This document shows positions 7,741 through 52,179 of a stretch of 55,040 bases of DNA, in pieces. Numbering within the stretch: position 1 is the first letter of the stretch; each line of letters starts with the position of its first letter. Source of the stretch: Minisyncoccota bacterium (lineage in GTDB: Bacteria; Patescibacteriota; Minisyncoccia; UBA6257; GWB1-50-10); NCBI GenBank assembly GCA_041665265.1, contig JBAYJE010000005.1, positions 1 through 55,040 of the forward strand. The letters are read 5' to 3'. The position numbers were made by a program, and so were the translations under genes. The notes beneath the pieces are model-generated. The model saw only the letters and a list, made by a program, of their open reading frames with translations. It made no database searches and was not told the DNA's origin.

Positions 7741-8832
7741 ATGGGTATATATGCAAAAAGGATAGTACTTGTTGTGTGCGCACTTTTAATTAGTTTTTTG
7801 GGGTTTCGTTACGGATATATATTAAAAGGCATACCAGGATTTTCTGGTTTTTTTGCGTCTATTTCAGAAGTTCCTATAGCTATGGTAATACCTCCAGTCC
7901 CCATGCCCGAAGAGGTTCGCGCGATATACATAACGGCAGCTACTGCAGGAAGTAAAAAACGTGTTGAAGAGCTCATTACGTTTGTACACAAAAGTGGCAT
8001 GAACGCGATTGTGGTGAATGTGAAAGATGGCGATGGTGTGTATTTGGGAAGTGGTATGCAGGAGTTTGCAGAGCGATTAAGAAAAGAAAATATATATTCA
8101 ATTGCGCGTATTGTTGTATTTCAAGATAATTATTTTGCAAAACAGCATTTTGAGTTTGCATTGAAAACGGCGAGTAGTACACTTTGGCGTGGAAATGGTT
8201 ATGCGTGGGTTGATCCTTCAATTCAGAAAGTGTGGGAGTATAACGCCGAGATTGCTCTGCGCACATTCAAGAGCGGATTTTCAGAAGTGAACCTTGATTA
8301 TGTACGTTTTCCTGCGGATGGTAATTTGGGTGATATTGTATATCCCGCATATGATGGTAAGACAAAAAAATGGAAAGTTATTGCTGATTTTTCAGCATAT
8401 ATGAAAAATAAAATAAAGGAGCAATATCCTGAACGAATACTCTCACTTGATATATTTGCTTACAGTTTTCTTATCGATGGCGATTTAGGCATTGGTCAAC
8501 GTTTTGCAGACCTTATTGATTTGTACGATGTAATTGCGCCAATGGTGTATCCTTCGCATTTTTCTCCTGGTAATTTCGAATACGAGAATCCTGCAGAAGA
8601 ACCCTATGAAGTGGTGCTTGCGACACTTCAAAACGGAATTTTTGCTATGGAGGAACAAGGGAAATATACGATAATACGGCCGTGGCTTCAGGACTTTAAT
8701 ATGGGTGCAATATATAATCGTGAAAAAATACAGGCAGAAATAAAGGCGGTGCGCGACGTAGGACTGACCACTGGTTGGATGATGTGGAATCCATCGAATC
8801 GGTACGATATTTCAAAATACGAGGTGAAGTAA
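7741..8832 (+). CDS. putative glycoside-hydrolase-like TIM-barrel protein (GHL10/DUF4015-like), membrane anchored
   Basis: N-terminal TM helix, then MNAIVVNVKDGDGV... and NLDYVRFP..., the pattern I associate with DUF4015. The ORF-track GTG start lies inside the upstream terminator. Confidence 0.55.
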   Translation: MGIYAKRIVLVVCALLISFLGFRYGYILKGIPGFSGFFASISEVPIAMVIPPVPMPEEVRAIYITAATAGSKKRVEELITFVHKSGMNAIVVNVKDGDGVYLGSGMQEFAERLRKENIYSIARIVVFQDNYFAKQHFEFALKTASSTLWRGNGYAWVDPSIQKVWEYNAEIALRTFKSGFSEVNLDYVRFPADGNLGDIVYPAYDGKTKKWKVIADFSAYMKNKIKEQYPERILSLDIFAYSFLIDGDLGIGQRFADLIDLYDVIAPMVYPSHFSPGNFEYENPAEEPYEVVLATLQNGIFAMEEQGKYTIIRPWLQDFNMGAIYNREKIQAEIKAVRDVGLTTGWMMWNPSNRYDISKYEVK

Positions 8833-8845
8833 GCGTGAAGGCAAA

Positions 8846-8876
8846 TAAAAATCCCGCCGAAGCGGGATATTTTTTA
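8846..8876. terminator. bidirectional intrinsic terminator
   Basis: AAAAATCCCGCCGAAGCGGGATATTTTTT lies between convergent genes. Confidence 0.8.
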
Positions 8877-9596
8877 TGACTCATTGTAAAGGATATTAGC
8901 AAGCTCTTCGCTTGCTCGAAGGACTGCCTGTTCCAATTCCTCAGTGGATGAAACGTAATGTATGGAGTCCCCAATATAAATATCGACCGGACCACAATTA
9001 AAATTGGGAATGAAGCGTCCTGGCGCGAGAGCAAATTCAGCTCCTTCCACCCATATAGGAATAATAATGGGGCGTTCGACATGTTTTGAAATAAATTTAA
9101 CGCTTTCCGAGAATTTTCCAATTCCTCTTCCACGAGGTGAGAAAACTTTTATCTTGCGTTTGTGGGTTCTTCCGCCCTCAGGAAAGAGTATTACCGTTCC
9201 CTTTTCATCTTGTATAATCTTTATGATTTTTCGCAACACAAGAACATTTTGAGAAGCATTTTCAGCATTGCGGTCAATAAGAATCATGCGTGCGTGGCGA
9301 AATATTTTGAAATACCAATACTTCATAATATTTTCTCGATCAGGCGTATTCCAAGGAATGTATTTGAATGGTTGCAAAATGCATCGAGGGAAAAAGAGGA
9401 AGGGGAGTAATACGGTTTCAAAAAGGGATGGATGATTTGATATTATTAGCATCCCTTGTTTGTGATGCCACAATTTTTCTAATCCATGAATACGTATTTT
9501 TCCGCGCATACGCAGCCAAAGTATTGGTGGACCCATGATAAGCATCACAGCATAGACCGCTGCAAGAAATTTTAATTTTTCAAGAAATTGCTTCAT
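8874..9596 (-). CDS. plsC: lysophospholipid (1-acyl-glycerol-3-phosphate) acyltransferase-like
   Basis: NHPSLFE (HX4D/E-type block) and FPEGGRT blocks typical of PlsC-family acyltransferases. N-terminal TM helix. GGAGA SD. Confidence 0.65.
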   Translation of the reverse strand: MKQFLEKLKFLAAVYAVMLIMGPPILWLRMRGKIRIHGLEKLWHHKQGMLIISNHPSLFETVLLPFLFFPRCILQPFKYIPWNTPDRENIMKYWYFKIFRHARMILIDRNAENASQNVLVLRKIIKIIQDEKGTVILFPEGGRTHKRKIKVFSPRGRGIGKFSESVKFISKHVERPIIIPIWVEGAEFALAPGRFIPNFNCGPVDIYIGDSIHYVSSTEELEQAVLRASEELANILYNES

Positions 9597-9671
9597 CGCT
9601 GTCTCCGTATATTAATGAATGAAAATGACTGGCGTTATTATGCTCATTTTCTTCTTTTTTTGCAATTGTAT

Positions 9672-9693
9672 AAAAAATCCCGCCGAAGCGGGA
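9672..9693 (-). terminator. intrinsic terminator (same hairpin as at 8851)
   Basis: TCCCGC-CGAA-GCGGGA with a T-run on the minus strand. Confidence 0.7.
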
Positions 9694-9695
9694 AT

Positions 9696-10289
9696 TTATT
9701 GAAGAACTCTTTTTCGTGGCAAGAAGAGTAAGCCGGTAATAAATCCGATGACTAGCACCATTGCAACTGGATAAAGAGCAATTGCAAATATCCATTCTCG
9801 GATTGCAAGTACATTTGCGATAGCGCCAAGGAAGAAAAGAGCCCATGCGGTTTTATCTTCTTTTTGTGGTTCATAATACACTTTTCGTACGGTCGGCATT
9901 GATGCAGAGAGATCGACGAGTGTAGTCGTGACGAGTGCCACAAGAGCAGAATCGAAGATGAACCAAAAGAAGAGACTTAAGGCCGCGACGAATATGCATT
10001 TTTGATCAAATGGCGTCCATCCCCCTTCTCCATATTTTATGGAGAAGAGTGCGATTATGGAGCTGCCAATCACATATCCGATTGGGACCCAGATAGTTTC
10101 TCGCGCACCAGATGCATATGAACTTACTGCGATGATGCCGCTTACACCTGCCCAGATGAACCATGATGCGCGATTCGGCTTAGTTCTTTTATTAGGATCA
10201 GGATTCAGAATTGAGCGAATGTAGGGCACATATGAGGCGATTGAGAAGAGTCCTGCAAGTACGCCAAAAATTTCTTTAATGTCGTACAT
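9696..10289 (-). CDS. polytopic membrane protein (PQ-loop-like?)
   Basis: About 6-7 TM segments. The N-terminal FSIASYVPYIRSIL is reminiscent of PQ-loop repeats. TGGAGA SD. Confidence 0.5.
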   Translation of the reverse strand: MYDIKEIFGVLAGLFSIASYVPYIRSILNPDPNKRTKPNRASWFIWAGVSGIIAVSSYASGARETIWVPIGYVIGSSIIALFSIKYGEGGWTPFDQKCIFVAALSLFFWFIFDSALVALVTTTLVDLSASMPTVRKVYYEPQKEDKTAWALFFLGAIANVLAIREWIFAIALYPVAMVLVIGFITGLLFLPRKRVLQ

Positions 10290-28576: not shown

Positions 28577-28660
28577 CCCGTTCAATTCCCAGCAGCCCTA
28601 AAACAAAAAGCCTCTCAAAGGCCTTTTGTTTTTTAGTCGGGCTGCCGGGAATTGAACCCG
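28577..28660. repeat. imperfect ~84-bp palindrome: inverted copy of the tRNA-Pro 3' half plus flank
   Basis: The left arm CCCGTTCAATTCCCAGCAGCCC (28577-28598) is the near reverse complement of GGGCTGCCGGGAATTGAACCCG (28639-28660). The spacer is itself palindromic. Confidence 0.8.
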
Positions 28661-28707
28661 GTCTACATGCACCCCATGCATGCGTACTACCGGTATACTA
28701 CAGCCCG
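28637..28707 (-). tRNA. tRNA-Pro (anticodon GGG)
   Basis: Manual cloverleaf: acceptor CGGGCTG/CAGCCCG, D stem GTAT/GTAC, anticodon stem CATGC/GCATG with loop AT-GGG-GT, T arm CCGGG-TTCAATT-CCCGG, discriminator A. No encoded CCA. Confidence 0.85.
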
Positions 28708-28846: not shown

Positions 28847-29035
28847 TTATTTTACTTTACTTAAGGTTCTTAGACACTTGGTGCAAACTTTGGATCGTTT
28901 TCCTAATGTTAAAAGGCTAGTCCATTGAAGGTTAGCTCTTTTTTTATTCCATCCCGTTGGATTATATTTACCGCGGAGTAACTGTCTTGTTCCTCCCATT
29001 TTGCCGGTTTTTACACATCGTTCACATGCTCGCAT
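28847..29035 (-). CDS. rpmB: 50S ribosomal protein L28 (short, Cys-containing form)
   Basis: 62 aa. MRACERCVKTGKMGGT...RGKYNPTGWNKKRANLQW...KVCTKCLRT fits my recollection of the L28 pattern (CxxC...NLQ...CxxC). Confidence 0.6.
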   Translation of the reverse strand: MRACERCVKTGKMGGTRQLLRGKYNPTGWNKKRANLQWTSLLTLGKRSKVCTKCLRTLSKVK

Positions 29036-29044
29036 AGTTTTTGT

Positions 29045-29073
29045 ATTCTAAAGGGTAATAGAACACTCGTCAA
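29045..29073 (-). promoter_or_regulatory. sigma70-type promoter 9 nt upstream of the rpmB ATG
   Basis: The minus strand reads TTGACG-17 nt-TAGAAT. Confidence 0.55.
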
Positions 29074-29212: not shown

Positions 29213-30574
29213 ATGAAGTTCTTTGTACGTTTATGTATCATCGTATGTGCATTTTTTATGCTTCCATTTTCGGCGTTCTCTCAAACAGAACCCCCAAGGG
29301 AAACGTGTTCTTCAATGATTTGGCCTCATGCGGATTATCGTATGTGGGTGAATCGGGAGTATGTAATCCCGGGATCATTTATCCAAGTTCCTATGATGTT
29401 CGGTCTTCCGCCATCTGACACCGTACTCGTTGCAGACGCATCGGCTGTATTCAATCGATGGATTATGCCGCAATGGGGATGGTGGTTCAATCAGTGGAAT
29501 TTCTGTCCGTCTTCGGTCAGTTCGCAGCCTGATTTTAAATCAGATCGATTTAGAGTAATCGTTGTGGGATATCCTCACATCGGCGCAGGTGAAGTCGAAG
29601 TCGGTTCATTTATGGCACAAGTGGACAGGGATGCTATTCCTGGTGACACTATCGTCATTGAGCATCTGTTTGCAATTAACGACAGAGAAGTTGAACGACA
29701 TAAAGCAGAATTATATGTTCATCCTCGCGTAGTTTATGCGGATTTGAACGGAGATTCACTTGTGACAGGAATGGATGCTGCACTTATCTACCGCTTTCTT
29801 GTGGAAAATGGTGCGACTATCACTGTAAAGCAATTACTTACTTCGGATCTTGATGGTAATTACAAAATTGGATGGTACGATTTATATCTCTGTCTCTCGT
29901 ATATTTTGGGGCAGCGTTCGGGATTTCCCGTCGAGGGATATAATACAGAAGGAAAAGGAATGGTTACGGAAAAAGTTCCTCTTATTATGGTTCCATTTGG
30001 CAGCGCTACCGCAATCTCTTTTGGGACTAACGAGATAACGAACGGAGAACTCGAGTTTAGGATACCGCAAGGAGCGACCCTTGAACCTACGAGCGCGTTC
30101 TCAGGATCTCTTTCTGATATTGCATATGGATCGAATGGTGTTGTGAAAGTACGGTTTGCAAAAGGTGTTTCTATGACCGGTGCGCTTTTTACCATACGCA
30201 ATGCATCACCTGAACAGATTGCGGTATGTGGGAAGGTCAATCGAGGAAATCTAATTGATCCGATCATAGAGCGCGCAACAGGAGTGGAAGGAAAGACAAT
30301 CATTCCGCACATTTTTTCACTTGAGCAGAACTATCCGAACCCGTTTAATCCGACAACAGTGATTGCATTCTCTGTTCCTTATGCGTCGCGCGTGACCCTA
30401 AAGGTATACAACCTTCTTGGTCAGGAAGTCGCAACGCTTATGGAAGGAAGTGAACAATCCGCAGGCATGCATTCTGTTCCATTCGATGCTTCGCATCTCG
30501 CATCTGGTGTCTATCTTTATAAGATGAACGCAGGGGAGTTTGTTATGACGCGGCGAATGGTTCTTCAGAAATAG
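29213..30574 (+). CDS. secreted protein with dockerin-like repeats and a T9SS (Por) type A C-terminal sorting domain
   Basis: Signal peptide ...LPFSAFS/Q. DLNGDSLVTGMDAALIYRFL and DLDGNYKIGWYDLYLCLSYIL. C-terminus EQNYPNPFNPTTVIAFSVPYASRVTLKVYNLLGQEVATL...SGVYLYKMNAGEFVMTRRMVLQK. GGAGG SD. Confidence 0.8.
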   Translation: MKFFVRLCIIVCAFFMLPFSAFSQTEPPRETCSSMIWPHADYRMWVNREYVIPGSFIQVPMMFGLPPSDTVLVADASAVFNRWIMPQWGWWFNQWNFCPSSVSSQPDFKSDRFRVIVVGYPHIGAGEVEVGSFMAQVDRDAIPGDTIVIEHLFAINDREVERHKAELYVHPRVVYADLNGDSLVTGMDAALIYRFLVENGATITVKQLLTSDLDGNYKIGWYDLYLCLSYILGQRSGFPVEGYNTEGKGMVTEKVPLIMVPFGSATAISFGTNEITNGELEFRIPQGATLEPTSAFSGSLSDIAYGSNGVVKVRFAKGVSMTGALFTIRNASPEQIAVCGKVNRGNLIDPIIERATGVEGKTIIPHIFSLEQNYPNPFNPTTVIAFSVPYASRVTLKVYNLLGQEVATLMEGSEQSAGMHSVPFDASHLASGVYLYKMNAGEFVMTRRMVLQK

Positions 30575-31242: not shown

Positions 31243-31813
31243 TGTCTCCCGAGCCCACCTGAAGAATGAATGTGTTTTTATCGGTAGGGAGCTTAAAGAG
31301 AAGAGCCCCACTTACTGCACTCTTAGGTGGCATAGAAGAAAATGAGCCAATCACTTGCGAGCTTTTTTGGTTATTACCATCGAGGTTTAATACTTGAATA
31401 AGGTCATCAAAGGAAATGGCGGTATAGGATGATGCTTGTGCGGTAAATATCTTTACTCCAATACGTATGGTGCCATCCGAAAGTTTTGTGGCGCGTTCTA
31501 TGGTAACCGTAAGAGGTGATTGAGGAGAAAGTGCTGAACTTGAAGGAGTTTCAAAGAGAATTGCAGAGGATATTACAATACCGCCTTCTTCTGGTTCGGC
31601 AGGAGGAGTTGAAGTTGGGATAGGTGAGGAAATTGTCTCCGTGCCCGGTGTTTGAGGTGTTGTGACAGCCTGATTCTTCATTTCAAGAGTGAGTTCAACA
31701 TTTTTTACACTACTCGAAAGCATGGACATCTTATCAAAGACAATATAGAACCCCGTCATTACGAGGAATGCAAAGAGAATGAGAATAACATAGATTATTT
31801 TTTCGTTGCGCAT
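31181..31813 (-). CDS. membrane-anchored secreted hypothetical protein
   Basis: N-terminal TM helix, a Thr/Pro/Ser linker and a beta-rich C-domain. I call the start at MRNEKIIYV. Confidence 0.55.
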   Translation of the reverse strand: MRNEKIIYVILILFAFLVMTGFYIVFDKMSMLSSSVKNVELTLEMKNQAVTTPQTPGTETISSPIPTSTPPAEPEEGGIVISSAILFETPSSSALSPQSPLTVTIERATKLSDGTIRIGVKIFTAQASSYTAISFDDLIQVLNLDGNNQKSSQVIGSFSSMPPKSAVSGALLFKLPTDKNTFILQVGSGDTMKFYEFDFGKKIYKETVIG

Positions 31814-31865
31814 GACTTTATTATACACTTCGATTGCTTATGAGTGTGGTATAGTGGAAATATCT

Positions 31866-32492
31866 ATGAATCCAGTTTTATTTATTTTTCAGATGATTGT
31901 GCTTGTGTTCTCGGTTATTATTCATGAGGTGTCTCATGGATTTGTTGCAGAAAAATTTGGAGATTCAACCGCACGACGTATGGGACGACTTACGTTGAAC
32001 CCCTTAAAACACATTGATCCATTTGGTTCTATTATCTTGCCGCTTCTTATGGCACTTGTGCCTGGAGGAGTAGTGTTTGGATGGGCAAAGCCTGTGCCAG
32101 TAAATACTACAAGTCTTAAAAACCCAGAGCGCGATATGGCATACATTGCAGCAGCAGGACCTTTGAGTAACCTTACCCTCGCGCTTGTGTTTGCTCTTTT
32201 GTATCGTGCACTTTTAGTCTTTTTTTTGCCTACGACCTACACAATGGTACTTGGTGATTTTTTCAGCCTTATCGCAATTACGAACATCTCGCTTGCGATT
32301 TTCAATTTAGTGCCGATTCCGCCACTCGATGGTTCAAATGTGCTCTTTGCACTCTTGCCAAAATCTGCACACGAGGTACGCGCATTTCTTACTCAGTATG
32401 GTTTTTTTCTTCTTCTTGGATTCATTTTCTTTGGTATTGAACTTATTAGTCCTGTTATCTTTTTCTTCTATAAATTATTTTTTGGTCTCTAG
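31866..32492 (+). CDS. site-2 protease family (M50) zinc metalloprotease
   Basis: HEVSHGF (HExxH) in a TM helix, and NLVPIPPLDGS. I call the start at MNPVLFIF. Confidence 0.8.
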   Translation: MNPVLFIFQMIVLVFSVIIHEVSHGFVAEKFGDSTARRMGRLTLNPLKHIDPFGSIILPLLMALVPGGVVFGWAKPVPVNTTSLKNPERDMAYIAAAGPLSNLTLALVFALLYRALLVFFLPTTYTMVLGDFFSLIAITNISLAIFNLVPIPPLDGSNVLFALLPKSAHEVRAFLTQYGFFLLLGFIFFGIELISPVIFFFYKLFFGL

Positions 32493-32518
32493 TCTCTTTG
32501 TGGGGATGGTGGGGTTGA

Positions 32519-32638
32519 CCCCGTTAGAGGTGTCATATTGCAATCATGAAATGTTTTAATTATTTTGTTGTTTTGTTTATAAATGTTATGTAGAGTAAAT
32601 GAACAACGGGTGCCATAAGCACCCTGCTTCTAACGGGG
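32519..32638. repeat. 10-bp inverted repeat CCCCGTTAGA / TCTAACGGGG bracketing the rpsL upstream region
   Basis: The arms are at 32519-32528 and 32629-32638. Each is adjacent to a GGGGTTGAC copy (32511-19 and 32635-43). The same 9-mer pair occurs upstream of secY. Confidence 0.85.
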
Positions 32639-32667
32639 TTGACGATTTTTACGATGCCCTCTATACT
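32639..32667 (+). promoter_or_regulatory. near-consensus sigma70 promoter 12 nt upstream of the rpsL ATG
   Basis: TTGACG-17 nt-TATACT. Confidence 0.6.
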
Positions 32668-32679
32668 AATTTCTGTTTT

Positions 32680-33093
32680 ATGCCAACCATTGGACAACTT
32701 ATAAGAACCGGACGTACGAGTAAAAAAGGTAAAGACAAGACCCCTGGTCTTGGTTATTATTTTAACTATTTAAAAAATCGCCCCGTGAATTCCGCATCGC
32801 CATTTAAACGTGGCGTATGTCTCAAAGTATTCACGACCACACCAAAGAAGCCAAACTCCGCACTTCGTAAGGTGGCACGTATCCGACTTACCAACGGTAT
32901 GGAAGTCACTGCTTATATTCCTGGAGAAGGGCATAACCTTCAAGAGCACTCCGTAGTAATGATTCGTGGCGGCCGTGTAAAAGATCTTCCGGGTGTACGT
33001 TATCACATCGTTCGTGGTGTTCTCGATACGTCTGGCGTAGATCGCACTGCACAGAGGTCAAAGTATGGCGCAAAGAAAAAGAAGGCAAAATAA
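32680..33093 (+). CDS. rpsL: 30S ribosomal protein S12
   Basis: MPTIGQLIR...[19 protein letters not shown]...[26 protein letters not shown]. Confidence 0.97.
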
Positions 33094-35744: not shown

Positions 35745-35762
35745 AAAGCATTATATTTTTGC

Positions 35763-35790
35763 AAAACGCCGCTTCAAGCGGTGTTTTGTT
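35763..35790 (+). terminator. intrinsic terminator after fusA
   Basis: 11-bp stem (one G-U) AAAACGCCGCT/AGCGGTGTTTT. Confidence 0.75.
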
Positions 35791-35807
35791 TGTAGTATAA
35801 TTATGAT

Positions 35808-36773
35808 ATGAAAAACCTAACTCAATTCCTTGCAGTATGCATGGTTATTTTGGTTTTCGGAGCATCGTCGATTGCTTCGGCTCAGGTTTCTACTTCTGTT
35901 TCTACTTCTACATTTTCCAATCTTGGCACTTTGCCAGATAGTTCTTTTTATTTTTTAAAATCGTGGAAAGAACAAATCCAACTTTTTTTCACGTTTGATA
36001 TGGAAAAGAAAGCTGAACAATATTTACACCTTGCTGATGTGAGATTAGCCGAGTATCAAAAAATGATTGAGAAGGGAAAACAAGCGATTGCGGAAAAAAC
36101 GTTGACGAAGTACGAGAATCAATTAACTCGCGCATTGGAAAAGGCAGAGGAGCTTAAAACAAAGAGCAATGAGAAAGCAAACAATGTAAGAGCTAAAATA
36201 GAAGAGGTCTCTACAAAGCATGTTCGGATTCTTCAAGAAAATTTTGCAAAAGCATCTGAAGGTGCAAAACAAGGACTGGAACGAGCACTTGAAGCTTCAA
36301 GAAAAGGAATTGAGAAAATTCAAGAAAAAGATAAGAGCGAAAATGAAGAATCAACTTCAACTTCCGTCTCAACTACTTCTCGTTTCAATTTCACTTTTAA
36401 ATATGGTGTTGGAGCAATAAATGAATTGAATACTTTTGATAAAACCTTCACAAAGGACATGATTATGGGGTCCCCAATAAAAGTAAACTTAAAATTATCT
36501 GAGAATGAACTTAATAATATTTATGAGAAAATAAATGAACTAAGATTGTTTAGTAAAAGCCCCGAATCTTCTCAGGCTAATGCGTTTGTTACTCCTTGCT
36601 CCAGTTATTCTTTGAAAGTGCAGGAAAATACTGATCAGAAAGAATTATCTTGGAATAATTGTCGTGGGAAAATTAGTGACGAGTTTCAACAATTTAGTAA
36701 TTTTGTTGTTTCTCTTATTGAATCAAAAGAAGAATATAAGAATTTACCAGTTGCAAAGGGAGGGTATCAATAA
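35808..36773 (+). CDS. secreted coiled-coil protein (DUF5667-like N-domain)
   Basis: Signal peptide, then LPDSSFYFLKSWKEQIQLFFTFDMEKKAEQYLHLADVRLAE, as I recall for DUF5667. A TATAAT sits 6 nt before the ATG. Confidence 0.6.
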   Translation: MKNLTQFLAVCMVILVFGASSIASAQVSTSVSTSTFSNLGTLPDSSFYFLKSWKEQIQLFFTFDMEKKAEQYLHLADVRLAEYQKMIEKGKQAIAEKTLTKYENQLTRALEKAEELKTKSNEKANNVRAKIEEVSTKHVRILQENFAKASEGAKQGLERALEASRKGIEKIQEKDKSENEESTSTSVSTTSRFNFTFKYGVGAINELNTFDKTFTKDMIMGSPIKVNLKLSENELNNIYEKINELRLFSKSPESSQANAFVTPCSSYSLKVQENTDQKELSWNNCRGKISDEFQQFSNFVVSLIESKEEYKNLPVAKGGYQ

Positions 36774-36781
36774 AAAATTTC

Positions 36782-36958
36782 ATGAAAAAGATTTTACTTA
36801 GTATCGCAATTATTATTGTGGCTTTGATTGTTGCTCTCTTTATTTATTCTGCAATTACGAATTCAATTTTGAAGCGTTGTGAAAATACTTCTCCTCTTCC
36901 GGGCCGCGCAATGATGCAATGTAATTGGTTTTGGCAACAAACGCGTCCTTTGGTTTGA
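36782..36958 (+). CDS. small membrane protein (58 aa), unknown
   Basis: MKKILLSIAIIIVALIVALFIYSAI... with one TM helix. It starts 9 nt after the previous stop and is below the ORF-track cutoff. Confidence 0.4.
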   Translation: MKKILLSIAIIIVALIVALFIYSAITNSILKRCENTSPLPGRAMMQCNWFWQQTRPLV

Positions 36959-47958: not shown

Positions 47959-47997
47959 ACTCTCTTACGGTATTCGGATAACCTTCTTATAAGATGA

Positions 47998-48101
47998 ATC
48001 CCGTTAGAATTTCGCCAAAATAGTCAAAACAGAATTTATTATCAAAGATACATAATCGTCAATTAGAAGAAATGACCAATACTATAAAAATCTAACGGGA
48101 T
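47998..48101. repeat. 11-bp perfect inverted repeat ATCCCGTTAGA / TCTAACGGGAT bracketing the rplO-secY spacer
   Basis: The arms are at 47998-48008 and 48091-48101. The second arm covers the first two nucleotides of the secY ATG (48100). Confidence 0.85.
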
Positions 48102-49371
48102 GAATAAATTACTTCTTATCTTTAAATCCCCCGATCTTCGCAAGAAGGTACTCATGGTTCTCCTTCTTCTTTTTGTGTTTCGTCTTCTCGCCGCTATTCC
48201 TATTCCTGGAATTGATGCATCAAAATTACAGCAATTTTTTAGTTCAAACCAATTATTTGGTTTCTTAAACATTTTTTCTGGTGGTGGCCTTTCAAATCTT
48301 TCTATCATGATGCTTGGCGTAGGTCCTTATATTACGGCTACCATTATCATGCAGCTTCTTACTATTATTTTCCCTAATTTAAAGAAGGCTTACTACGAAG
48401 AGGGAGCTGCGGGACGGGCAAAATTTAATCGTATTTCTCGTTATATTACCGTGCCGCTCGCAGCACTTCAGGGATATGGATTTTTGAATCTTCTTGCATC
48501 ACAAAACATTATTCAGCGTTTATCGTTTCTTGATACCGCAACGAACGTACTTATTATTACTGCAGGAAGTATGCTTCTTATGTGGATTGGGGAACTTATC
48601 TCCGAATATAAGATTGGGAATGGTATCTCACTTCTTATTTTTGCGGGTATCATAAGTGGCCTTCCGAGCGCGGTGACTACTGCATTTTTGAACTATACAC
48701 CCGCAGTGATTCCTACTTATCTTGTTTTCCTCGTTCTTAGTATTGTGGTTATTGCAGCAGTGGTATTTGTAAACGAAGGGGAGCGAAAAATTCCTGTGTC
48801 TTATGCAAAACAAGTGCGTGGTATGAAGATGTACGGCGGTGTTTCAACCTATCTTCCTCTTAAAGTGAATCAGGCAGGTGTGATTCCAATTATTTTTGCA
48901 ATATCCATTCTTCTCTTTCCTCAGTTCATTGCACAGGCGTCTTCAATCATCTCTCCATCTTTCTCACTTACACTAAATGCATTTGTTACAAGAGTTTTTA
49001 ATAATCAATTTATTTATAGTTCACTCTACTTTGTACTCGTAGTTCTTTTCACCTACTTCTATACCGCAGTAACGTTTGATCCAAAAGAAATTGCAAAAAA
49101 TCTTCAGCAAAGTGGCGGTTTTATTCCCGGTATTCGTCCGGGGCAAGCGACCGCAGAAGTGATTGCAAAGACAGTTCACCGCACTACACTTTTTGGTGCA
49201 ATGTTTCTTGGTGTTATTGCTATCTTGCCAAATATTACTCAATCAGTAACAGGTATCCAGATGCTTACTATTGGTGGCACCGCACTTCTTATTGTGGTGT
49301 CGGTGGCACTTGAATCAATGAAGCAGATTGAGTCTCAACTTACGGTTCGCGAATACGAAGGAATATTTTAA
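48100..49371 (+). CDS. secY: preprotein translocase subunit SecY
   Basis: 10 TM segments. IPIPGID, LGVGPYITATIIMQLL, GISLLIFAGI, and position after rplO. Confidence 0.96.
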   Translation: MNKLLLIFKSPDLRKKVLMVLLLLFVFRLLAAIPIPGIDASKLQQFFSSNQLFGFLNIFSGGGLSNLSIMMLGVGPYITATIIMQLLTIIFPNLKKAYYEEGAAGRAKFNRISRYITVPLAALQGYGFLNLLASQNIIQRLSFLDTATNVLIITAGSMLLMWIGELISEYKIGNGISLLIFAGIISGLPSAVTTAFLNYTPAVIPTYLVFLVLSIVVIAAVVFVNEGERKIPVSYAKQVRGMKMYGGVSTYLPLKVNQAGVIPIIFAISILLFPQFIAQASSIISPSFSLTLNAFVTRVFNNQFIYSSLYFVLVVLFTYFYTAVTFDPKEIAKNLQQSGGFIPGIRPGQATAEVIAKTVHRTTLFGAMFLGVIAILPNITQSVTGIQMLTIGGTALLIVVSVALESMKQIESQLTVREYEGIF

Positions 49372-51998: not shown

Positions 51999-52179
51999 AA
52001 ATAAGTCTCATTTTTATACTATTTTCGTGAAATCCGGCATACCAAAAAAGTGTGTACTCCGGGCCGTTAGGCCAAGTCTTACCCACTTTTTTAGTATGCC
52101 AAGTTTCACTTCAGCCATTTGGATTCCTATATTTTATTCCCTCGCTTCAAGGGTTCTTTTGGAAAAAAGAGACTTATTT
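51999..52179. repeat. 181-bp element bounded by 17-bp inverted repeats, with an internal 17-bp-stem hairpin
   Basis: AAATAAGTCTCATTTTT (51999-52015) pairs with AAAAAAGAGACTTATTT (52163-52179), 16/17. The inner arms 52036-52052 and 52084-52100 also match 16/17. Confidence 0.8.

Follow-up and report, generated by a model that had tools for sequence, protein, structure and literature searches.

Inverted-repeat pairs at the rpsL promoter and the secY start codon of a Minisyncoccota bacterium as probable termini of two insertions of a MITE-like element family

Why do the same two short inverted-repeat arms bracket the spacers in front of both rpsL and secY in a Minisyncoccota bacterium? The window, by which we mean the whole stretch of 55,040 nucleotides that was analyzed (positions 1 to 55,040 of contig JBAYJE010000005.1, from a groundwater metagenome), contains CCCGTTAGA or its reverse complement TCTAACGGG at 32520(+), 32629(-), 48000(+) and 48091(-) and nowhere else. 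These four occurrences form two facing pairs (32520/32629 and 48000/48091), as the initial annotation had noticed; in the shuffling test, the chance expectation for CCCGTTAGA in the window is 0.19 and none of 100 shuffles reached four. That annotation had explained the pairs by a regulatory or processing element common to two translation/secretion operons, and had named, third among its candidates, the two ends of a small insertion. It is this third candidate that duplications, empty sites and a whole family of copies bear out: very probably, both pairs are the termini of two independent insertions, belonging to one small, non-coding, palindrome-ended mobile (MITE-like) family spread through Patescibacteria/CPR.

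The first pair lies between a peptidase M50 gene (31806-32492, plus strand; Pfam PF02163, E 5.5e-21) and rpsL, the open reading frame of ribosomal protein S12 (32681-33093, plus strand; the orthologues that follow elements in loci L035 and L059 were confirmed as members of the S12 family). The adjacency of the M50 gene to rpsL is kept in the relatives L121-L128. The candidate insertion, called E1 hereafter, is a non-coding segment of 120 bp (32519-32638) with the ends CCCCGTTAGA (32519-32528) and TCTAACGGGG (32629-32638) around an interior of 100 nt, AT-rich as had been described. Its distal arm does abut the -35 box of the rpsL promoter, TTGACG-17-TATACT (32639-32667, plus strand; 10/12 matches in a promoter scan), and the copies of GGGGTTGAC reported beside each arm are found at 32511 and 32635 only. 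The second pair was rightly placed in the rplO-secY spacer, and its right arm continues into the secY ATG. Here the candidate insertion, E2, is a non-coding segment of 102 bp (47999-48100) with the ends TCCCGTTAGA (47999-48008) and TCTAACGGGA (48091-48100) and an AT-rich interior of 82 nt; its last base is the A of the start codon of secY (48100-49371, plus strand; PF00344 on the called gene). In both elements the terminal inverted repeat is perfect over 10/10 bases, and direct repeats flank each pair, GTTGAC/GTTGAC for the first and ATGAAT/ATGAAT for the second. The two interiors present no significant similarity in either orientation, and neither element contains an open reading frame beyond a 9-codon read-in. 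When the window was searched strictly for YCCCG...CGGGR pairs whose inverted repeat measures 8 bp or more, E1 and E2 were the sole results.

A doubtful third facing pair, CCCGTTGGA / TCTAAAGGG (28953-29055), was seen upstream of the gene at 29213, with one mismatch per arm and arms 85 nt apart. It has neither a duplication nor a pairing 10th base, it is 95% identical in L121, and the number of one-mismatch arm matches in the window is at chance level. We did not count it as a family member, and it is probably due to chance or a very old relic.

The history of both sites was read from relatives. Scanning species-representative genomes with ribosomal protein L4, we obtained 80 Paceibacterota/Parcubacteria loci spanning both sites. 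The closest relative, L121 (95% L4 identity, about 87% DNA identity, collinear over 21 kb), has both elements, and the next relatives (61-70% L4 identity) have the same gene order and neither element; among the compared relatives, the sites are filled in the window and in L121 only. E1 is absent from L122-L125, and E2 from L122, L123, L125, L128 and L138. In the latter five, the rplO-secY spacer is reduced to 2-15 nt, and the secY start found directly after rplO is either ATGAAT (L123, L125, L138) or ATGAAC (L122). Between the M50 gene and rpsL there are 60-83 nt in L123-L125 and 276 nt in L122, still with no element inside. The native rpsL promoter is GGGGTTGACG-17-TATACT in L122-L124, where GGGGTTGACG occurs once each, and L125 has GGAGTTGACG. 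To judge from their sequences, these sites read exactly as the duplications predict for the state before insertion, and this match argues that E1 was inserted at the TTGA of the rpsL -35 box and E2 at the TGAA of A-TGAA-T at the secY start. Neither filled/empty polymorphism nor excision joints were seen for the sampled population in the assembled contigs of the runs.

The proposed course of events at rpsL starts with the insertion of E1 into the TTGA of the -35 hexamer. The left duplication copy of this TTGA would be the one at 32515-32518, which is present as a single copy in the relatives' empty sites, and the right one that at 32639-32642, the first four bases of the rpsL promoter. Placed after the terminal GGGG of the element, the right copy would recreate the native GGGGTTGACG, so that the promoter stays intact. 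The GGGG that precedes the -35 box belongs to the native sequence, and the left GGGGTTGAC can be read as this GGGG followed by the duplicated TTGA and by the first base of E1 itself, and the right GGGGTTGAC as the terminal GGGG of E1 followed by TTGA and a native C. A 9-bp duplication of GGGGTTGAC was considered and rejected because E2 and the first copies of tandem arrays (see below) are without GGGG on their left side; these array-first copies also argue that GGGG is not required.

For secY, a terminus of the T..A type would have provided the A of a rebuilt ATG, with duplication copies of TGAA at 47995-47998 (ATGAAT/ATGAAC at the relatives' empty sites) and at 48101-48104, inside secY codons 1-2. 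The old secY ATG would now open a short upstream reading frame, and this orphaned original start (ATG AAT) indeed begins a 9-codon mini-ORF translated as MNPVRISPK (47994-48023, plus strand), whose frame continues into the left end of E2. The mini-ORF of L121 is lengthened to 35 codons by a 2-nt deletion, with a stop TGA overlapping the secY ATG. Such read-in ORFs look like by-products, their length and frame varying across the family.

The family itself was collected by a metagenome scan with the 18-mer GGGGTTGACCCCGTTAGA, which gave at least 119 loci from many groundwater and sediment samples; the search word included GGGGTTGAC, so the copies are biased to the TTGA class and the counts do not give the relative abundance of the niches described below. 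Among the matches listed, 91 of the 123 occurrences of GGGGTTGACCCCGTTAGA are accompanied by an exact TCTAACGGG no more than 200 nt away, and most others have a decayed right arm. Assembled contigs of two groundwater runs contain further copies of the arms, with interiors of 48-50 nt and other flanks. For the statistics, 130 non-redundant copies were gathered from all loci, again among the matches listed. The 10th base pairs in 130/130 copies (C..G in 116, T..A in 13 and G..C in 1), and the 4-bp direct repeat is identical in 100/130. Beyond TTGA, the duplicated tetramers include TTTA, TAAA, TTAA, TGAA, TGTA and CGAA, and the outermost flank bases are free. Together, the pairing and the flank statistics point to a conserved inverted repeat of 10 bases, YCCCGTTAGA ... 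TCTAACGGGR, with a target duplication of 4 bp, mostly TNNA. The 6-bp repeats of the window would then consist of the 4-bp duplication and coincident neighboring bases. Reading them instead as 6-bp duplications (GTTGAC, ATGAAT) outside a 9-base terminal repeat was rejected, because non-canonical copies repeat flank positions 2-5 only and the adjacent base always pairs. Further inside, positions 11-13 of the inverted repeat are about 90% complementary and covary (AGT/ACT, GGT/ACC, AAT/ATT, GAT/ATC), even within one interior class, and from position 14 on the pairing falls towards background. This covariation of the ends suggests structural selection.

What these ends enclose is mostly unrelated from copy to copy: 74 of the 130 interiors are singletons, the largest class has 12 members, and the interiors of E1 and E2 have no relatives in this collection except their orthologues. 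Interior lengths go from 6 to about 170 nt, which makes whole elements of 26-190 bp. Tandem arrays are common in the metagenome loci, with adjacent units sharing one TTGA, and they recall a repeat-spacer array. In this reading, TCTAACGGGG-TTGA-CCCCGTTAGA would be a palindromic repeat of 24 bp placed between acquired "spacers", and E1 and E2 would each represent a minimal array in the window. We consider this very unlikely. Bases 11-13 pair across each interior and not across the repeat, array-first copies and E2 indicate that full ends come with the insert at sites without any part of the repeat, and recurrent interior classes are shared between different contigs.

Short inverted repeats bracketing about 100 bp just upstream of genes could also suggest promoter switches that invert (invertons such as fimS, whose inverted repeats measure 9 bp), operated by one site-specific recombinase. 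In favor of this reading, the minus strand of E2 presents a promoter-like site, TTGACG-18-TAAATT, and that of E1 a terminator-like hairpin. Nevertheless, the contigs of runs X1 and X2 contained neither strand-switch joints nor inverted variants, and one orientation only was found in the window, in the second strain of these runs (strain B) and in L121. Moreover, the 6-14-nt interiors of some copies are too short for a promoter, and inversion leaves the flanking 4-bp direct repeats and the exact empty sites unexplained. Invertons are thus barely credible as an explanation of the two pairs, and we return to the reading of E1 and E2 as independent insertions.

The niche of a family copy goes with its end variant: the C..G form is found at -35 boxes of housekeeping promoters and the T..A form at start codons, and the window has one example of each niche. 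Orienting the TTGA-class copies by their duplication, we found that 57/72 terminal ones (79%) have on their right TTGAC(A) and, at 16-18 nt, a -10-like hexamer; the proportion among 3994 control TTGAC sites in the same loci is 13% (Fisher 4e-36). Although the search word leaves the base after the right TTGA free, about 90% of copies have a C there, and half have an A at the next position. The downstream gene is rpsL in three lineages, with a different element interior in each; infA was found four times, tuf twice and grpE twice (Pfam-confirmed in two, one and one cases, respectively, the rest being named from N-terminal sequences), and efp, rpsS, rpsB and topA once each, all Pfam-confirmed. 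In the second niche, 12/13 T..A-ended copies rebuild an ATG that opens an ORF of 55-1043 amino acids, against 3/28 other, C..G-ended copies located on GTG or ATG (Fisher 7e-7).

The rpsL promoter deserves separate mention. Its GGGG-TTGA-C was hit in L035, in L059 and at 32515-32642 of the window, by elements with unrelated interiors of 91, 48 and 100 nt, and these insertions in three separate lineages suggest that the native rpsL promoter, whose sequence mimics an element end with its duplication, is an insertion hot spot. The GGGG was also considered as a general promoter extension and discarded: it precedes 6 of 103 promoter-like TTGAC sites in the 80 unbiased loci, and four of these six are the orthologous rpsL promoter. 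The niche bias may reflect a mix of target choice (TNNA, and possibly a GGGG-TTGA context mimicking the element end) and of survival, only those insertions that restore the signal being retained.

The comparison with L121 separates the fates of the two elements. E1 is 83% identical between the window and L121, where the right arm is mutated to TCTCACGGGG by one substitution; around it, the identity is 82% for the M50 gene, 88% for rpsL and 100% for the rpsL promoter and leader. The substitution in the right arm argues that E1 is drifting, probably immobile DNA that spared the promoter, and E1 would now be neutral. E2 is 97% identical (three substitutions and a 2-nt deletion), with 85% for rplO, 78% for the spacer before E2 and 89% for the first 500 nt of secY; the binomial probability of so few changes in E2 is at most 0.005. 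The second strain of runs X1 and X2 also has E2, which differs by a 2-nt deletion only, and its flanks differ by 8-20%. Selection on E2, or a recent exchange between strains, is likely. E2 is the whole leader of secY, an essential gene without Shine-Dalgarno sequence, and for this reason it is probably under selection and may have been co-opted.

These data bear directly on the regulatory proposal, in its full form a shared cis-regulatory or RNA-processing module that would co-control rpsL and secY through a long-range RNA stem or through paired operators of one regulator. A stable stem can form between the ends, with RNA fold z-scores of -5.5 for E1 and -2.9 for E2; in E2 this stem takes in the first two bases of the secY ATG. 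Both the high conservation of E2 relative to its flanks (78-89%) and the complementarity kept by the covarying ends count in favor of the module. On the other hand, relatives without the elements keep the same rpsL promoter and the same secY start, and E1 is located upstream of the -35 box, hence outside the rpsL transcript. E1 also drifts like neutral DNA and has lost a perfect arm in L121, and the same ends enclose unrelated interiors at more than 100 unrelated loci. G.T and A.C mismatches at the ends are equally frequent, a symmetry that gives no sign of selection on one RNA strand, and a scan of the window with Rfam 15 gave no match at E1 or E2, its sole gathering-score match being tRNA-Pro. 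As the origin of the pairs, a regulatory module is largely refuted by these observations and we regard it as unlikely. Within the insertion reading, the conservation of E2 and the covarying ends indicate that selfish spread may not account for the whole pattern, some of which may be due to function.

Two other differences were observed along the same alignment. Between the window (32681-33093) and L121 (3861-4271), protein identity is only 67% for RpsL, against 99% for its neighbor RpsG. RpsL has an extra N-terminal segment of 18 residues, also present in L059, and a second strain of the same samples differs there at 35 of 258 bases. In addition, a 1.2-kb segment of the window (35752-36948), located between fusA and the next gene and carrying a gene for a 321-residue DUF5667 protein (PF18915), is absent from the otherwise collinear L121, which has 22 nt instead.

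Which enzyme could move such elements? About 2 Mb of loci and a set of viral contigs yielded neither an autonomous copy nor a transposase bounded by these ends, and none of the copies carries a gene; the viral contigs contained no family elements, and their 12 matches to a 15-mer are attributed to chance. Two candidates for an autonomous copy were rejected: L046 has a 277-nt interior without a convincing ORF, and L029, with 1972 nt and a membrane-protein gene, probably consists of two separate ends. Solo left arms mostly have decayed right arms. GIY-YIG mini-genes (PF01541) exist in the same kind of contigs, with inverted repeats of their own of 9-13 bp (A[C/T]CCCGCCCTCTA, ACCCCGCACCTT) that have only the YCCCG terminus in common with the CCCGTTAGA family and show no clear duplication. 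With different repeats and no visible duplication, this is a weak resemblance and not a link, and the mini-gene was not retained as the mover; among the 130 copies, no CCCGTTAGA-ended element contains a GIY-YIG gene. Transposition would be carried out by a putative enzyme acting in trans and probably recognizing paired (hairpin or cruciform) ends, since ends that covary and are always complementary argue for an enzyme that reads a paired end.

The GIY-YIG units form a group of their own. The mini-genes code for 71-93 residues (L112, plus strand, ORF from 11862; L100, minus strand, ORF from 8056; L213, 581-829; L224, 615-868) and lie within perfect inverted repeats of 9-13 bp (ATCCCGCCCTCTA, ACCCCGCCCTCTA, ACCCCGCACCTT), the stop codon being inside the right repeat. 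One unit is located between clpB and mraZ and another stands in a gas-vesicle operon with an ATGA overlap; the GIY-YIG proteins met on many contigs represent one locus sampled repeatedly. A second type of GIY-YIG gene (GFVYIMTN...; L152, about 9200-9700; L194, about 8500-9100) is flanked by longer inverted repeats, GTCATTGCGAGCC...GAAGCAATC and GATTGCTTC...CTCGCAATGAC.

A further-reaching proposal can be made, which we hold as tentative. The family would represent a new, structure-recognized class of CPR mobile elements that actively target the opening bases of expression signals (the TTGA of consensus -35 boxes in strong housekeeping promoters and the TG of start codons), with C..G and T..A ends matched to their niches and every insertion self-healing. 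An enzyme recognizing the hairpin ends and not the interior (a tiny GIY-YIG or another structure-specific nuclease) would move it in trans, and some copies, like E2, would since have been co-opted as leaders.

Genomes of CPR/Patescibacteria are tiny and tightly packed and are generally thought to be poor in mobile DNA. The present family is very widespread in ultra-small groundwater bacteria, and the 10 bases of its ends recur identically in numerous metagenomes from groundwater and sediment. Its insertions would sit in -35 boxes (rpsL, infA, tuf, grpE, efp) and in start codons of essential genes (secY) without breaking these signals, the ends rebuilding what was interrupted. Searching papers and preprints, we found no description of the family, no mention of the motif in a relevant context and no description of MITEs of CPR bacteria. 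New here are the exact empty sites at both loci, the statistics of the 10-base end and of the 4-bp duplication, the link between end variant and niche, the quantified -35-box niche at housekeeping promoters, and the opposition between a drifting E1 and a conserved E2. The insertion reading accounts for a recurrent "motif", which one might otherwise take for the signal of a regulon or for an extended promoter, and filled versus empty sites would offer ready markers of strain history. It also carries a warning for annotation: in these bacteria, long spacers in ribosomal operons and upstream mini-ORFs of the MNPVR type can be by-products of insertion. The question it poses is which enzyme moves elements that share just a short paired end, and how promoters and start codons are found.

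Two other inverted-repeat features were noticed in the window. At 51999-52179, upstream of secA, lies a nested palindrome of 181 bp with outer arms of 17 nt (94% complementary) and inner arms of 30 nt (83%), another intergenic palindromic element with ends different from those of E1 and E2. At 28580-28657, the 3' part of tRNA-Pro (28636-28707, minus strand) recurs just upstream on the plus strand, as an inverted repeat of 29 nt (83% complementary); it is a partial tRNA duplicate, a footprint of the kind left by integrative elements.

How does the family compare with known mobile elements? Like MITEs, its members are short and non-coding, with terminal inverted repeats, a fixed 4-bp duplication and filled versus empty orthologous sites. 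A shared interior is what they lack (74/130 singletons, with E1 and E2 unrelated to each other and to all others), and mostly unrelated interiors are unusual for MITE families. The IS1380 family and piggyBac are DDE elements with 4-bp duplications (TTAA in piggyBac) and CC(C) termini (CCC...GGG in piggyBac), which the E1/E2 family recalls by its 4-bp duplication of T..A type and by its own CCC...GGG termini. IS30 is known for end-targeting, that is, for insertion next to element ends, and the head-to-tail arrays sharing one duplication look as if produced by insertion of the family next to its own end. Unlike with these three, no DDE transposase with the family ends was found in the loci and viral contigs searched, and the elements measure 26-190 bp. 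REP/BIME and REPINs are short intergenic palindromic units that form hairpins and often arrays, with a GTAG head, no target duplication and a RAYT gene; the family is likewise made of short intergenic palindromes, often in arrays, and differs by its clear duplications (100/130); no RAYT-like gene was noticed beside its copies.

By analogy, the E1/E2 family would work like MITEs, and its nearest analogue would be the Correia elements (CREE/NEMIS) of Neisseria. These are non-coding, palindrome-ended elements of about 100-150 bp located at gene boundaries and restricted to Neisseria, with 26-bp inverted repeats, a TA duplication and homologous interiors; they can adjoin or contribute to promoter boxes and are co-transcribed with neighboring genes, and they are not known to have a cognate transposase. 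The family shares with them its non-coding nature, palindromic ends, gene-boundary position, contact with promoter boxes and, probably, co-transcription with neighbors. It differs in its ends, with 10 conserved and 3 covarying bases, in its duplication, which is 4 bp long and of TNNA type, and in its interiors, most of which are unrelated. Furthermore, whereas Correia elements belong to one genus, identical ends of the family occur in contigs of many metagenomes and in several named Parcubacteria lineages, and, unlike in Correia elements, its two end variants are tied to two niches.
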